From NCBI GenBank assembly GCA_963667175.2, contig CAXXXF010000016.1, positions 64,001 through 128,000 of the forward strand: DNA of 64,000 nucleotides. Direction: 5' to 3'. Positions 28,268 through 42,417 of this stretch are shown piece after piece (positions within the stretch are counted from its first letter, which is position 1; each line of letters opens with the position of its first letter). The notes beneath the pieces were generated by a model, which was not told the DNA's origin, searched no databases, and saw only the letters and a program-made list of their open reading frames with translations. This stretch comes from Candidatus Latescibacterota bacterium. Lineage in GTDB: Bacteria > Latescibacterota > UBA2968 > GCA-2709665. The position numbers and the translations under genes were made by a program.

Positions 28268-29173
28268 ATGATGGGGCTGGAAATGCGTATATTGGCAACG
28301 GGATTGACAAAAGTCTATCCGAAGGGGACCGTGCCCGCGCTGGACAACGTCGACCTGGAGATCGGACGGGGAACGTTCGGGCTGCTTGGCCCGAACGGCG
28401 CCGGAAAGACCACGCTGATCAAGGTTCTTTCAACGCAGATGGCGCCAACGGCCGGGCACGTCAGAATCGGCGCCTGGGATTTGCAGCGCAACCGCTCCGA
28501 AGTGCGGCGGCGGCTGGGCTACCTTCCCCAGCACTTCGGCGCATATCCGCAACTGACGGCGTGGGAGTTTCTGGACTATATGGACCGGCTGGCGGCCGGA
28601 CGCCGTCGGATCGGGCGGAGGGCGCGAGTGCGCGATGCGCTCGAAAACGTGGGGCTCTACGACGCGCGGGACCGGCGGACCGGCGCCTTTTCCGGCGGAA
28701 TGATGCGGCGACTCGGGATTGCTCAGGCCATTGTCGGCGATCCGGAAATCCTGATTGTGGACGAGCCCACCGTGGGGCTCGATCCGGAAGAACGCATCCG
28801 TTTTCGAGGGATTCTCGCTCGGCTGAGTCGGGACAGGACAATCCTGATTTCCACCCATATCGTAGGCGATATTTCGAGCACCTGCGATGACCTGGCGGTG
28901 CTGAATGAAGGGCGGATCGTCTACAGGGGGTCGCCCGATGCCCTGGTCGCTCGCGCGAATGACAAGACCTGGCGGGTACAGGCCGACGACGCGGAGTTCG
29001 AGACGATATCCCGGCGGTTTCTGGTCGTGACGGTCGCCGTGGATGGCGGACGAATGGACCTCCGGTTCGTGGGCGACGGCCGGCCGCCGGCCCACGCCGA
29101 ACCGGTACCGCCAAACCTCGAAGACGCATACGTGTATTATATGGGCCGGGAGAATCAGGAAAGGGCCGCGTAG
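28268..29173 (+). CDS. ABC transporter ATP-binding protein (ABC-2/DrrA-like)
   Basis: Walker A GPNGAGKT, LPQHFG, FSGGM, LIVDEPTVGLDP, ISTH, C-terminal PNLEDAY; start may be 28283. Confidence 0.95.
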   Translation: MMGLEMRILATGLTKVYPKGTVPALDNVDLEIGRGTFGLLGPNGAGKTTLIKVLSTQMAPTAGHVRIGAWDLQRNRSEVRRRLGYLPQHFGAYPQLTAWEFLDYMDRLAAGRRRIGRRARVRDALENVGLYDARDRRTGAFSGGMMRRLGIAQAIVGDPEILIVDEPTVGLDPEERIRFRGILARLSRDRTILISTHIVGDISSTCDDLAVLNEGRIVYRGSPDALVARANDKTWRVQADDAEFETISRRFLVVTVAVDGGRMDLRFVGDGRPPAHAEPVPPNLEDAYVYYMGRENQERAA

Positions 29174-29176
29174 GGC

Positions 29177-39900: not shown

Positions 39901-41701
39901 TCGACCCATTCTGATGACAACGGCCACGACGCTTCTGGGCGTTCTTCCACTGGCGCTCGAATACGGCGGCGATTTTGAAATCTGGCCGCCGTTCGCAATT
40001 ACCGTTCTGGGTGGGCTGTCGGTTTCCATGGTCTCCACGTTGATCCTGATTCCAGTGGTCTACATGGGACTGGATCAGATCGGCGCCTGGCTTGCCGACA
40101 TGGGGGCTATCGCCGTCACGCTGTCGCTGCTGGCGACCGCCGCGGCCGGGTATGGCGTTTATGTGCGGTATGAAAGCGTTTTCTGGGCAACGCTGTCGAT
40201 ATTACCCATCTGGGGCGCGTCACTGACAGCGATATGGATCGTCCTGAAAGTACACCGCGCCCGAGTCGCCGCCCGGCGGGTATCCGGCGCCGTTCATTCC
40301 ATCCAGCTGAGAAATCTTACCAAGATCTACGGTGCGCCCGGGCGGTTTATACGGGAGTGGGCGCGCAACGAGCGCCGGCGAGGGCGGATGATGGAAACCG
40401 GGCCGGGTCCACACGACCGCAAGGCGGTCCGTGAAGCGCTCATCTGGAAGCTGCCGTTGCTCGCGCTGTTGTCGGTCTTCACGACCTATTTCGTGGACGA
40501 AATCTGGATCTATCTGCACGGGCTTGCGCTGGCATCCATGCTTGCGCACGTGGGGAGATGCATTGGAGACCTGAGGGAAAAGCAATTTCCGGCGCCGATC
40601 GCCCGCATTGGCGCCCTGCTGCTCAAAGCCGTGCTGCCATTGACGTTTGTAGGCTATGCGCACTGGCGGCTGAACCTGCTTTCAGTCACGCTTGCCACGT
40701 TCGGGCTGTGGGTCGCCTATCGACTGGTGCGGCGGCTCGCCGACAGGGTACGTTCCGGGGAGATCGATCCCGATGCCGTGTCCGGACGTTTGGCGCGGCC
40801 GCGCCGGTGGAGCTATCGAATGGCCTCGGCCATGCCGCTCGTCGGCGTTCCCCGGCCGGAGTTTCGGGCGCTGGCGGGCGTCAACCTGGAAATCGGCAGG
40901 GGGATGTTCGGACTTCTGGGCCCCAACGGGGCCGGCAAGACCACGTTGATGCGCATTCTCTGCCGGGTACTCGAACCCAGCTACGGCTCCATTCTGATCG
41001 ACGGTCGAAACGTCCTGAACAGGGGATCGATTCACGGTCTGATTGGCTACCTGCCGCAGCACTTCGGCAACTACGGACACCTTTCCGCAACCGAGTATCT
41101 GGAATACCGGGCGCTTCTGGAGGGTTTCAAAGACCGGACAATTCGGGACACCCGGGTGATCGAATCCCTGGAACAGGTCAATTTGATCGAACGCAAAGAC
41201 GATCCGGTCGGCTCGTTTTCAGGCGGTATGAAGCAGCGCCTGGGCATCGCTCAGACCCTTCTGCACACCCCGCTGATCGTGGTGGTGGACGAGCCCACGG
41301 CGGGGCTCGATCCGCTGGAGCGCATCCGGTTCCGCAACCTGCTTGCCAGGTTGAGCCAGGATCGCATTGTCATTTTCTCCACGCACATCGTGGAAGATAT
41401 CTCCGGAAGCTGCAATCGTCTGGCAGTACTGGACCATGGGTGTCTTCTGTATACGGGAACGCCGGAGGAAATGCGGAATCTGGCGACGGGACGGGTGTGG
41501 GACACGGTGGTTTCGGAGCGGCGCTTTTCGGAGATGGAGGACAAACTGAAGCTCATTTCGCATCAACGAACGCCCGGCGGGATCCGGATGCGGTTCCTGT
41601 CAGAACAGGCGCCGGTCGATATCGGCGCGCAGAGTGTGGATCCAACCCTGGAAGACGCGTACCTGTACCTGCTTGGCGGAGGGGAGGGACAGCCGTGCTG
41701 A
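36989..41701 (+). CDS. AcrB-family RND permease fused to extra TM helices and a C-terminal ABC ATPase
   Basis: One uninterrupted 1570-aa ORF: complete RND (GMLADNGIVVMENI, RVRPILMT, ITVLGGL), extra hydrophobic helices, then GPNGAGKT, LPQHFG, FSGGM, VVVDEPTAGLDP, FSTH, PTLEDAY. Confidence 0.9.
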   Translation: MILPDLAVRRPVTTSMFFAAFAILGVVSWTRLPVQLFPELIFPEVFVTLSLQGASPEQVERDLLVPAEGEIGKLDGVQEMESFAMANRGGIRVSYAPDVDMKFALLQLQSNLNRLQPTLPERTQSDVRRFDSTDLSSSIMELHVLADWDLNPLREFTEEKIRPELESVDGVVNVTVLGGRRSAVEIVLDPFLLEAHGLSTGQVRARLNSYNRRREYLGRVYEGNRAYSVSIQGQFTDLRQIRDLVLNADGTLRLGDVSRVEFGLQEQADRHRVNGRPSVGVRIQKDDEANLIEVAASVEGAIGRLNRDFESEGVELGVSSSQADLMTGALSTLKQAAIAGAVLGLIVLFLFLRNLRFVSVLLLAIPISLLMTFNLMYLGGLSVNVLSLCGLALAMGMLADNGIVVMENIFKHYERGKSPADAARDGAAEVGRAVVAATATTVTAFLPILFIESDARDLLRELALSMAFPLLASLLVALTLVPALAVRALSRGVRQPPDVRGLLERYTLLLKTALRHRASVVLSAGVALALTLVVAFFYLLQQQVRREETRFTVYVNLPEGATLDATDEVVKQVEASVRDVPGLDRFTTSVREAEADVNVLLDGRSDRPGGISLDEIKEQLDDRLQNVQGGVVGYEPRPRAGRGGRGQGIGQRRRRGSGGFDLTGATPNEQVVVRGYDFTILTMIANDLTYRLEELEEVDANSVRADAERSSPEVQVIPDAAALFDRRLGAQEVLAAMGDTRWDGFRTTVPFLLPDATEVPIEVRTIEEEDRDRYGLAEFRRSRILNRDGHYVPLSEVARVRTDEGRSSLLRTDQTRRIVVSYRFPSEILDSQPRLDLARRVVRTTLQDMVLPEGYSIEIIEAHEEMIYYWMMAVAAVLIYMILASLFESFASPIIILCTLPPAAIGSCWALMMSGTGLSQQEGPMALLGFIVLLGIAVNNGIILIDAVGVLRTRFGFRRERAVLTAARSRVRPILMTTATTLLGVLPLALEYGGDFEIWPPFAITVLGGLSVSMVSTLILIPVVYMGLDQIGAWLADMGAIAVTLSLLATAAAGYGVYVRYESVFWATLSILPIWGASLTAIWIVLKVHRARVAARRVSGAVHSIQLRNLTKIYGAPGRFIREWARNERRRGRMMETGPGPHDRKAVREALIWKLPLLALLSVFTTYFVDEIWIYLHGLALASMLAHVGRCIGDLREKQFPAPIARIGALLLKAVLPLTFVGYAHWRLNLLSVTLATFGLWVAYRLVRRLADRVRSGEIDPDAVSGRLARPRRWSYRMASAMPLVGVPRPEFRALAGVNLEIGRGMFGLLGPNGAGKTTLMRILCRVLEPSYGSILIDGRNVLNRGSIHGLIGYLPQHFGNYGHLSATEYLEYRALLEGFKDRTIRDTRVIESLEQVNLIERKDDPVGSFSGGMKQRLGIAQTLLHTPLIVVVDEPTAGLDPLERIRFRNLLARLSQDRIVIFSTHIVEDISGSCNRLAVLDHGCLLYTGTPEEMRNLATGRVWDTVVSERRFSEMEDKLKLISHQRTPGGIRMRFLSEQAPVDIGAQSVDPTLEDAYLYLLGGGEGQPC

Positions 41702-42417
41702 ACTGGCGGGAATTGCTGCTCACCACGTGGCGGCTTTATCGGCTGAGCTGCAGGATCATATTCCACAGGAAGTTGATGTTCATGGGCATCGGCCTTCTCG
41801 TCTATTACGCCGCCATGTACGCGTTCGCGGTGTGGCGCCCCGACGAGGGGTTCGGCGTGTCGCAGGCGCTCAACGTTCTGGTTGAAATCCCCGGTATTGC
41901 GCTTGCCATTTATCTGACGATGGACCTCGTTGCGGGCGAACGAGACCGGAATACACTTGAAACCCTGTTCAGCACAACCTCTACCCACTACAAGATCTGG
42001 ACGATCCGGATGGTGGGGGTGTATCTGGTTCTGGCGGGAACCCTCATGGGAATGACGGTGGTCGCCTATTTCGTCTTCGCCGAACTTCCGATTTTCCGGG
42101 GCGGATTGAACGCCTTTCTGCCGGCATGTCTTGCCGCCGGGCTCACGTTTACCTTCTCCGTTCTCTGTCGAAGCGGCAACGCGGCCGCGATGCTGGCGAC
42201 CGGGGTGATGGTCCTGGCTCTGGTCGTTTCGAAGTCCATGCCCGATTCTCCCTTCGTGCTCTTTCTGGACACGTTTGATCCGCCGGTGGGCATGGAAGAC
42301 ACGCTTTGGGGCGACCGGGTTCTGCTGAACCGTCTGGCCGTCGTGCTGCTGTCGGGCTTGCTGCTGTTTATCGGCCTGCGCAGAATGGAAGCGCGGGAGC
42401 GGCTGGTATCTTCGTAA
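41695..42417 (+). CDS. ABC-2-type transporter permease
   Basis: GTG 41695 overlaps the previous stop, SD GGAGGG; 240 aa, about six TM helices, AGERDRNTLETLFS motif. It is the 3' part of track ORF 40558-42417. Confidence 0.82.
   Translation: MLNWRELLLTTWRLYRLSCRIIFHRKLMFMGIGLLVYYAAMYAFAVWRPDEGFGVSQALNVLVEIPGIALAIYLTMDLVAGERDRNTLETLFSTTSTHYKIWTIRMVGVYLVLAGTLMGMTVVAYFVFAELPIFRGGLNAFLPACLAAGLTFTFSVLCRSGNAAAMLATGVMVLALVVSKSMPDSPFVLFLDTFDPPVGMEDTLWGDRVLLNRLAVVLLSGLLLFIGLRRMEARERLVSS

Follow-up and report, generated by a model that had tools for sequence, protein, structure and literature searches.

An RND permease fused to an ABC ATPase in a conserved six-gene transport operon of Latescibacterota and other bacterial phyla

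Resistance-nodulation-division (RND) pumps are the textbook proton-driven efflux systems of diderm bacteria, and ATP-binding cassette (ABC) pumps are driven by ATP; the two are treated as alternative engines of tripartite transport systems. An operon of Candidatus Latescibacterota bacterium raises the question of whether both engines can be parts of one system. The analyzed window, a 64,000-nt stretch of contig CAXXXF010000016.1 from the genome of this organism (herein referred to as G000; other G numbers stand for genomes of relatives and L numbers for individual loci), contains six co-oriented open reading frames (ORFs) at positions 28268-42417 of the forward strand. They encode a free ABC ATPase (g1), an ABC-2-like permease with a large ectodomain (g2), an RND-type lipoprotein membrane fusion protein (MFP; g3), an RND permease (RND1; g4), a fusion of a second RND permease (RND2) with a linker and an ABC ATPase (g5), and a small ABC-2-type permease (g6). 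The nucleotide-binding domains (NBDs) of g1 and g5 are herein named NBD1 and NBD2. An earlier note, made from the DNA letters alone, had proposed these six genes and their families, and all of them were confirmed at these coordinates with Pfam and NCBIfam. The fusion in g5 is genuine. For the operon as a whole we lean, by a modest measure, towards one conserved transport module that joins an RND tripartite pump and an ABC-2 transporter.

The RND-ABC fusion protein

The fusion gene g5 (36989-41701, forward strand, as are all operon features below) encodes 1570 aa. The ACR_tran family matches residues 5-1027 (602 bits), and ABC_tran matches residues 1297-1438 (92 bits). Such a gene could be an artefact, with an assembly or sequencing error, a lost stop codon, or a frameshift joining two genes. 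However, a search with the C-terminal 541 aa of g5 returned at least 120 clusters, most of them of about 1550-1620 aa, with identity from 95% down to 38%. All the clusters listed contain ACR_tran, and all but one also contain ABC_tran; their source names include Gemmatimonadota, Latescibacterota, Acidobacteriota, KSB1, and Calditrichota. A full match to the linker and NBD2 within open frames of at least 1570 aa was found in 37 of the 41 genomes of the organism's order. The linker alone (residues 1030-1300) has matches in 84 of 168 genomes of the phylum, including 34 of the 52 high-quality ones. Of these 84 genomes, 82 have it at a single place, and G081 and G083 each have two adjoining partial matches. 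With the linker of Bacteroides sp. 224 as query, matches were found in 43 of the 301 sampled genomes of its order (Bacteroidales).

DNA contigs bridge the RND-linker junction in two sequencing runs (X1, 39686-40382; X2, 39898-40798) and the linker-NBD junction in one run (X1), with no indels listed at either; uncovered bins in this comparison carry no evidence. Thus, a frame of about 1570 aa recurs in complete and draft genomes of several phyla, independent contigs cross the junction without indels, and the linker of 270 aa is conserved and has a confidently predicted fold. The artefact reading, to which we assign practically no probability, is already refuted. Judging from these homologs, the shared reading frame of the fusion is far beyond chance. 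The covalent RND-ABC fusion described in the earlier note holds: proteins with both ACR_tran and ABC_tran occur broadly across genomes, and homologs keep the RND and NBD parts in one frame.

Few free-standing linkers were found. A search with residues 1030-1300 among shorter proteins gave only 6 matches, 3 on contigs of 980-2412 bases and 2 being pieces of one broken gene; this search would miss Bacteroidota-level relatives because shared 5-residue words were required. The ESM Atlas clusters nearest by features, of 480 and 551 aa in Bacteroidota, could be fragments or split genes. At locus L053, in a metagenome-assembled genome (MAG) of Prolixibacteraceae, g2, RND1, and the fusion are in several out-of-frame pieces, which represent a broken copy or assembly errors, and at L097 a run of unknown bases lies within the fusion.

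The read comparison also gave three joints (40941->41224, 40944->41286, and 40960->41286). Their sides comprise only 23-25 letters, and they lie at the Walker A region, with a depth jump and many loose ends. They were rejected as deletions and taken as ABC genes of other organisms. RNA-library contigs of 90-99% likeness (ten contigs for each run) cover part of the stretch, at 39712-40285 and 40828-41158 for run X18 and at 40279-40491 for run X19, and this is not proof of transcription. Sampled words of 39500-42000 are shared with a sponge metagenome run (share 0.69) and a coded-organism run (0.54), with smaller shares for coral and marine metagenomes. These shares hint at a host-associated marine habitat, and the best-matching run may be the sample of origin.

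Five parts were distinguished in g5. The RND2 permease domain (residues 1-1038, 36989-40102) is followed, past the transmembrane (TM) helix TM12 of the RND fold, by two extra TM helices (residues 1040-1097, 40106-40279), recognized both as helices in an AlphaFold2 (AF2) model and as hydrophobic segments. The first beta strand of NBD2 (residues 1104-1116, 40298-40336) includes the sequence IQLRNLTKIYG (residues 1104-1114). Next comes an insertion of about 170 aa inside the NBD (40337-40849), predicted to consist of a basic amphipathic helix, four long helices (residues 1141-1255), and a short helix. The rest of NBD2 (residues 1288-1570, 40850-41701) contains the ABC_tran match, the ATPase motifs, a C-terminal accessory domain, and the stop codon.

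The AF2 model of residues 1001-1570 has a mean predicted local distance difference test (pLDDT) score of 86.3, with values of 85-96 over the two TM helices. In the numbering of this model, which starts at residue 1001, the helices of the extra TM pair are at 40-61 and 64-97, the strand with LTKIYG is at 104-114, and the helices of the insertion are at 119-137, 141-166, 171-196, 202-228, 231-255, and 269-280. Two of the four long helices are clearly hydrophobic by Kyte-Doolittle hydropathy, and a basic cytoplasmic stretch lies between the extra TM pair and the first NBD2 strand. Conserved residues of the linker are LTKxY, W1124, R1129, W1153, W1173, R1227, Y1276, and P1283; the L, T, K, and Y of LTKIY are invariant or almost so in 73 aligned fusion proteins.

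Because NBD1 opens with an equivalent GLTKVY strand, with the second strand directly after it, and because the GldA profile aligns NBD1 from profile position 1 and NBD2 only from position 17, NBD2 is a complete ABC ATPase, whose first strand is parted from the rest by the membrane insertion. The 270 residues between the RND and ABC_tran matches are a coding, structured module and not a spacer, as judged from their conservation and the model. With the C-terminal model as query, Foldseek found nothing but NBDs and long ABCA alignments of poor quality (root-mean-square deviation about 20 Å), and gave no informative match for the insertion. The NBD2 matches include TM_1403 (4yer, E 6.6e-24) and NosF (7osf_B and 7o0y_C, 31-33% identity).

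Conservation and distribution of the gene set

Nine loci from two families of the order all have g2-g3-g4-g5-g6 in this order, with g1 adjoining in six of them. A scan of species-representative genomes returned 80 loci, and 48 of them have an uninterrupted fusion. The other 32 are ordinary RND genes drawn in by the RND pattern, several of them in MFP-RND-RND operons without an ABC part. Among the fused loci with an upstream flank of at least 9.5 kb (n = 39), g2, g3, and g4 were found in all 39 and g1 in 36. At least two of the three loci without g1 lack it because the locus starts inside or just before g2, cutting g1 off. With enough downstream flank (n = 43), g6 was found in 41 fused loci. 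The gene order is kept across Latescibacterota, Calditrichaceae, and Bacteroidota.

Presence and absence in the 168 genomes of the phylum agree with this. The linker and the g2 ectodomain were found together in 80 genomes, the linker only in 4 (genomes that are 58-86% complete), g2 only in 2, and neither in 82. The gene set is therefore co-conserved both in its neighbourhood across phyla, a check that the earlier note had proposed, and in presence/absence profiles.

The carriers include the cultured organisms Bacteroides sp. 224, Parabacteroides massiliensis, Marivirga tractuosa, M. sericea, Draconibacterium mangrovi, and Maribellus maritimus. Further carriers are MAGs labelled Odoribacter, Proteiniphilum, Rikenellaceae, and Calditrichaceae, as well as Latescibacterota chromosomes.

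One locus has a permuted order. At L064:5681-20992, the genes are arranged as MFP, NBD1, a small ABC-2 permease, RND1, an ABC-2 permease with an M1-like domain (919 aa), the RND2-NBD2 fusion (1438 aa), and an outer-membrane efflux protein (OEP), so that all seven components are kept. The fusion of this locus has no TM hairpin, and its insertion, found at the same site, comprises only about 50 aa and has no TM helices. The adjacency of NBD1 to the small permease and of the large permease to the fusion hints weakly at one four-part ABC core.

No OEP/TolC gene was found in the operon of the window, as the earlier note had stated, and six OEP genes lie elsewhere in G000. In Bacteroides sp. 224, Parabacteroides massiliensis, and a Calditrichaceae MAG, g2 and g3 are separated by an OEP gene of about 500 aa (E 1e-41 to 1e-45), and in L064 another one directly follows the fusion. 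The absence of this gene from the operon is thus a feature of the lineage. Since the operons of Bacteroidota, Calditrichaceae, and L064 contain an OEP gene, the system is classified as an efflux-type tripartite one.

Components of the operon

The free ATPase g1 (28268-29173) has 301 aa and is DrrA/GldA/NosF-like (ABC_tran E 2.7e-31). Both NBDs score well above the ABC_tran cut-off of 25 bits, with 109 bits for NBD1 and 92 bits for NBD2. Their best NCBIfam matches are DrrA and GldA, and all family scores are under the equivalog cut-offs (for g1, TIGR01188 drrA with 198 bits and GldA with 176 bits). Both contain Walker A GPNGAGKT, Q-loop LPQ, signature FSGGM, Walker B with the Glu VDEP, D-loop GLD, and H-switch STH, and the NBD2 motifs are invariant in the 73 aligned fusion proteins. 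NBD1 and NBD2 are 45% identical over 277 aa and are each other's best match within G000 (E 3.5e-71 vs 3.8e-39 for the next ATPase), which bears out the earlier claim that they are clear paralogs with full motif sets.

A maximum-likelihood tree of NBDs was built with 41 rows: those of the window and of 17 operon loci selected for having g1 complete, plus three free-standing copies and two outgroups. In this tree, 17 of the 18 fused NBD2s belong to one clade that spans three phyla (support 98/97), and 20 free NBD1s belong to its sister group (support 91/77). The branching inside the NBD1 group mirrors that of the NBD2 clade; the L064 pair is unresolved, on long branches. Two parallel, mirrored clades imply that the duplication is older than the spread over these phyla and that both copies then diversified side by side. 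In G022, G027, and G089, the free-standing NBD1 copies fall within the NBD1 clade of their own family (support 100/100) and are, by this placement, recent offshoots of the NBD1 of the operon.

The large permease g2 (29177-32560, 1127 aa) has an N-terminal ABC-2-type membrane domain in its first 300 or so residues (29177-30076), for which ABC2_membrane_3 scores 28.5 bits, under its cut-off of 31.6. The AF2 model (mean pLDDT 75.8) has helices at residues 2-20, 22-47, 56-91, 102-139, 146-174, 177-195, 224-247, and 255-300, namely an interface helix, six TM helices, and a seventh long helix leading outwards. An Arg-rich loop ahead of the seventh helix fits the cytoplasmic side. The remaining approximately 830 extracytoplasmic residues (30077-32560) form an ectodomain with an M1-aminopeptidase-like fold, a beta-sandwich, a Golvesin_C domain (E 4.5e-15), and an RGG-rich tail. 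Foldseek matches of the ectodomain are IRAP, ERAP1/2, and APN at E of about 1e-18, over about 620-680 columns and with 10-13% identity; Pfam Peptidase_M1 scores 16.4 bits, under its cut-off of 27.7. M1 zinc aminopeptidases bind the metal at an HExxH(18x)E site and anchor the substrate through the exopeptidase motif GxMEN. The HExxH, HDxxH, and GxMEN motifs were found in none of 37 homologs. Because all 37 have neither HExxH nor GxMEN, the ectodomain appears to be an M1-peptidase-like fold that is non-catalytic. This domain and the linker, a predicted membrane module inserted inside an NBD, go beyond the earlier note. Homologs of g2 are named by their sources only as hypothetical or after the NosY-type permease family (JGI). 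The Arg/Gly-rich low-complexity tail closes the ectodomain at 32477-32557 (residues 1101-1127). Literature on Golvesin turned up only Dictyostelium Golgi-marker work.

The small permease g6 (41695-42417) has 240 aa and six hydrophobic segments. It matches ABC2_membrane_2 weakly (19.5 bits vs the cut-off of 27.2) and shares an acidic TM2-TM3 motif with the membrane domain of g2. The helix patterns of g2 and g6 agree with those of ABC-2 membrane subunits, which have an N-terminal interface helix, six TM helices, and a TM2-TM3 coupling segment in contact with the NBD. The earlier note had suggested multimer prediction for all six proteins; the run covered the linker and NBD2 with g6, and this pair passes. 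Its complex model has a score of 0.64 vs 0.00 for the best of 3 controls, and 58 of 80 solved complexes but only 2 of 110 mismatched pairs reach this mark, counts that hold roughly, given that the alignments were our own. Agreement between runs covers at least 89% of contacts, with a partner pLDDT of 73 or more. In the predicted interface, the Q-loop region of NBD2 (residues 1322-1383 and 1422-1426) touches three stretches of g6, residues 5-23, 84-100 (which surround the invariant Glu88), and 233-237, with the N-terminal helix and the TM2-TM3 loop as the contacting parts of g6. The model supports g6 as the putative membrane partner of NBD2.

The RND permeases RND1 (g4, 33909-36992) and RND2 are 33% identical. 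Both match ACR_tran at full length (745 and 602 bits vs the cut-off of 28), and both score under the cut-off of 1250 for RND_permease_2 from NCBIfam (623 and 518 bits). The best PDB match of RND1 is MdtB (9lyq_B, E 1e-95), and RND2 matches MdtB with E 4.9e-86. The proton relay of AcrB-type pumps consists of two Asp residues in TM4 and a Lys in TM10. In alignment with MdtB and an Acinetobacter pump, TM4 has D-N in both RND1 and RND2, and TM10 has N-D in RND1 and N-N in RND2 in place of the K-N of MdtB. The Asp of TM4 and the Arg of TM11 are kept. At least five unfused RND loci of G000 (C14:168740/171065, C15:898664, C15:900601, C17:68893, and C2:339690) share this D-N and N-N/N-D pattern. Loss of the proton relay was therefore rejected as a mark of the fusion, and the pattern is assigned to the subfamily because unfused paralogs share it. 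Most RND paralogs of G000 (on contigs C14, C15, C17, C2, and C16) have D-N in TM4 and N-N or N-D in TM10, and no TM10 Lys was found among the RND loci listed. A periplasmic Gly/Arg-rich loop of RND2 lies at about 38900-38990 (residues ~640-665); it is Gly-rich in the family consensus too.

The MFP gene g3 (32595-33677) matches RND_mfp (TIGR01730, 194 bits vs the cut-off of 94.9) and HlyD_D23. Its ORF opens at 32544, and TTG at 32595 is the likely start, followed in the DNA by a signal peptide and a VAAGC lipobox. For g4, the ORF opens at 33876, and ATG at 33909 is the likely start; homolog alignments open at residue 11-12. The gap between g3 and g4 (33678-33908) has 231 nt here, and the two genes abut in a related family (L012 and L015). 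The GTG start of g5 overlaps the g4 stop, and the GTG start of g6 at 41695, behind a GGAGG-rich site, overlaps the g5 stop at 41699-41701. A 619-aa ORF at 40558-42417 is genuine only in its last 240 codons, which are g6. A scan of 27900-42800 for promoters and terminators gave 3 promoter-like and 10 terminator-like sites, not above shuffled sequence. Pfam gave no FtsX or MacB_PCD match in any of the six proteins.

Long ORFs overlap the operon genes at 30659-32788 (-), 33834-35297 (-), and 40558-41694 (+), with 709, 487, and about 380 codons, respectively. Pfam gave no match for the ORFs 41563-42462 (-) and 40558-42417 beyond the genuine g6 part. All these long antisense or out-of-frame ORFs were attributed to the 62% G+C content. 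The operon is flanked by genes that have no relation to it, on the upstream side those for a thiamine pyrophosphate (TPP) enzyme, a DAO oxidoreductase, and a RidA-like protein, and on the downstream side that for CdaA, encoded on the other strand. Also not linked to the operon, an N,N-dimethylformamidase-beta-like protein with a lectin-like domain is encoded at 20130-22676 (+), and the CdaA-type diadenylate cyclase is encoded at 42464-43699 (-).

Possible mechanism and alternative explanations

If the operon is one transport module, its first part would be a tripartite RND pump consisting of the lipoprotein MFP g3, RND1, RND2, and an OEP channel, whose gene is part of the operon in other phyla and lies outside it in this genome. 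RND1 and RND2 probably form a mixed trimer, by analogy with MdtABC, where the heterotrimer is MdtB2C. A 2:1 trimer of RND1 and RND2 would bear one NBD2, which could pair with one NBD1, and a 1:2 trimer could allow an NBD2 homodimer. The second part would be an ABC-2 transporter of type V, like DrrAB and NosFY. Of its two ATPases, NBD2 on the C-terminus of RND2 would pair with g6 as its membrane subunit, and NBD1 would serve the other membrane subunit, g2. The two helices past TM12 and the four helices between strands 1 and 2 of NBD2 would be the tether, a membrane module by which the ABC and RND parts share one inner-membrane assembly. The ABC part would use ATP to move a substrate from the cytoplasm or the inner leaflet, or to work the periplasmic M1-like domain, and would so load the RND part. 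The latter would expel the substrate through the MFP and OEP on proton motive force.

The earlier note had proposed a heteromeric ABC core tethered to an RND/MFP assembly. The tether and the co-encoding stand, given the fusion, the co-conserved gene set, the closest-paralog NBDs, and the NBD2-g6 model; the g1-g2 pairs that stand alone in two genomes speak against a strict single core. For a single heteromeric complex using both energy sources we see about an even chance. A more detailed version is tentative, and we doubt it more than we credit it. It would be a dual-energy machine, in which a heterodimeric ABC-2 transporter (NBD1-g2/NBD2-g6) is built into a heterotrimeric RND pump via the tether. 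ATP would work the dead M1-like clamshell, flip an inner-leaflet substrate, or both, and the RND porter domain would receive the substrate, perhaps peptides or amphiphiles, and expel it on proton motive force via the MFP and OEP. The four-helix insertion, adjacent to the nucleotide-stacking residue of NBD2, would let the state of the RND part gate the ATPase. Primary and secondary active transport would then be covalently combined in a single cycle.

Because the distribution is patchy and conserved neighbours are lacking, an accessory efflux or defence role fits better, and the data point to it rather than to envelope biogenesis. Nothing was found in favour of the suggestion in the earlier note that a macromolecule is exported or assembled.

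Several observations weigh against a single coupled module. Free-standing g1-g2 pairs were found at L100:7579-11837 and L101:5627-9903 (G027 and G089), with no RND, MFP, or g6 gene nearby; they are 63-65% (g1) and 49% (g2) identical to the genes of the window. In G022 (L102 and L103), g1 is missing from the operon, and one copy of it and an additional copy of g2 are each found at a place of their own. Given these pairs and the unlinked g1, g1-g2 may be able to act alone as a transporter. No conserved neighbouring genes are shared by the upstream regions of three Bacteroidota genomes, and neighbours give no hint of a substrate. The Pfam ABC-2 membrane matches of g2 and g6 are both under curated cut-offs, and hhalign relates g6 to the membrane domain of g2 only weakly (E 2.7e-4, probability 41%). 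The NBD2-g6 interface is of the textbook NBD-transmembrane domain type, so its pass may reflect likeness to solved ABC transporters. The linker helices are not among the confident contacts of this model, where only residue 114 is named outside the NBD core. The Asp-Asp/Lys triad of AcrB is absent from both RNDs, and proton coupling is assumed from family membership because these canonical relay residues are not present. No direct evidence of substrate or energy exchange between the ABC and RND parts was found.

Alternatively, two independent transporters may be co-encoded and tethered, each acting separately on related or unrelated substrates, with the fusion securing only co-expression, co-localization, or stoichiometry, and no hand-off or coupling. 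Each half is viable alone, as shown by g1-g2 in G027 and G089 on the one side and by the MFP-RND-RND operons without an ABC part (L062, L067, L070, L090, and L095) on the other, and the predicted g6 contacts are on the NBD core, with none to the RND or linker helices. We nevertheless consider this explanation unlikely. The fusion is one frame across at least three phyla and down to about 38% identity, with conserved linker residues. The six short linker proteins are mostly fragments or broken genes, the linker and g2 almost coincide in presence and absence, and even the permuted gene order keeps all parts.

The ABC module could instead be a regulator or engine of the RND pump. The ATP cycle of NBD2, together with NBD1, would gate, assemble, or reset the RND trimer via the inserted helices, or the state of the RND part would control the ATPase. 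The insertion lies between strands 1 and 2 of NBD2, directly past a conserved aromatic residue, and L064 keeps it at the same site, though shorter and without TM helices. The aromatic residue ending strand 1 of ABC ATPases stacks on the adenine of ATP, and the regulatory insertion of CFTR NBD1 is at this same position. However, two dedicated ABC-2 permeases are co-encoded, which a pure regulator would not need, and g6 is predicted to dock on NBD2 like a normal transport domain; this explanation seems to us somewhat less probable still than independent transporters. A replacement of proton motive force by ATP, in which the RNDs have lost proton coupling and the fused ATPase drives the porter cycle, would agree with the D-N of TM4 in RND1 and RND2, where D-D would be expected, and with the N that both have at the TM10 Lys position. 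It is very unlikely, as the unfused loci of G000 share this subfamily trait and the TM4 Asp and TM11 Arg are conserved.

Known systems resemble one module of this kind in parts. Like MdtABC-TolC and AcrAB-TolC, the operon has ACR_tran permeases, nearest to MdtB, and a single RND-type lipoprotein MFP; as in MdtABC, two tandem RND paralogs stand behind one MFP, and homologous operons include an OEP gene. In contrast to these pumps, the C-terminus of one RND subunit here is extended by six TM helices and an ABC ATPase, a second ATPase is co-encoded along with two ABC-2 permeases, and TM4 and TM10 have D-N and N, not D-D and K, as do the unfused paralogs. MacAB-TolC combines an MFP and a channel of the TolC family with an ATP-driven inner-membrane component, in which the permease bears a large periplasmic domain, and all these elements have counterparts here. 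MacB, however, is an FtsX-type (type VII) permease with the NBD on its own transmembrane domain, whereas the subunits here are ABC-2-like and one NBD is on an RND protein; g3 scores as RND-type (194 bits) and reaches only 48 bits for MacA vs the cut-off of 342.

NosDFY(L), DrrAB, and GldAFG are related through the ATPases, with NBD2 near NosF in fold, both NBDs matching DrrA and GldA, and g2 homologs named as NosY-type. NosDFY also couples an ABC-2 membrane subunit to a large periplasmic domain. Unlike in NosDFY, no NosD-like beta-helix gene was found in or beside the operon, and no nos genes; the periplasmic domain here is M1-peptidase-like and fused to the permease, and one of the ATPases, itself interrupted by a membrane insertion, belongs to a fusion with an RND protein. 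The g2 ectodomain shares the multi-domain fold of M1 aminopeptidases but has no HExxH or GxMEN, sits on an ABC-2 membrane domain, and is followed by Golvesin_C. In ArsAB, a secondary carrier becomes ATP-driven through the ATPase ArsA, which is neither an ABC ATPase nor covalently fused. The concept of an ATPase joining a secondary-type transporter is thus shared, but the families are unrelated and ArsAB has no tripartite envelope-spanning partners.

No description of an RND-ABC fusion with these partners was found in the literature searched, with supplements outside its scope, in agreement with the earlier note, which knew of no characterized example. The parts themselves (HAE-1-type RND, RND MFP, OEP, ABC ATPases, ABC-2-like permeases, and the M1 fold) are known, and it is their combination that was not found in print. 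This combination comprises the fusion of an RND permease to an ABC ATPase, the splitting of that ATPase by a membrane insertion, and two dedicated ABC-2 permeases, one of them with a putatively dead peptidase fold.

In this system, one polypeptide joins the RND and ABC engines. The hybrid is old, as its fused and free ATPases make up distinct parallel clades spanning three phyla, and it is present in half of one phylum and in about one seventh of the sampled Bacteroidales genomes. If its parts act together, extraction from the cytoplasm or the inner leaflet, or capture in the periplasm, would be coupled to expulsion across the envelope, and ATP and proton motive force would be combined in one pump. 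Since cultured organisms, gut and marine Bacteroidota, carry the system, its function is open to direct genetics, biochemistry, and cryo-EM.

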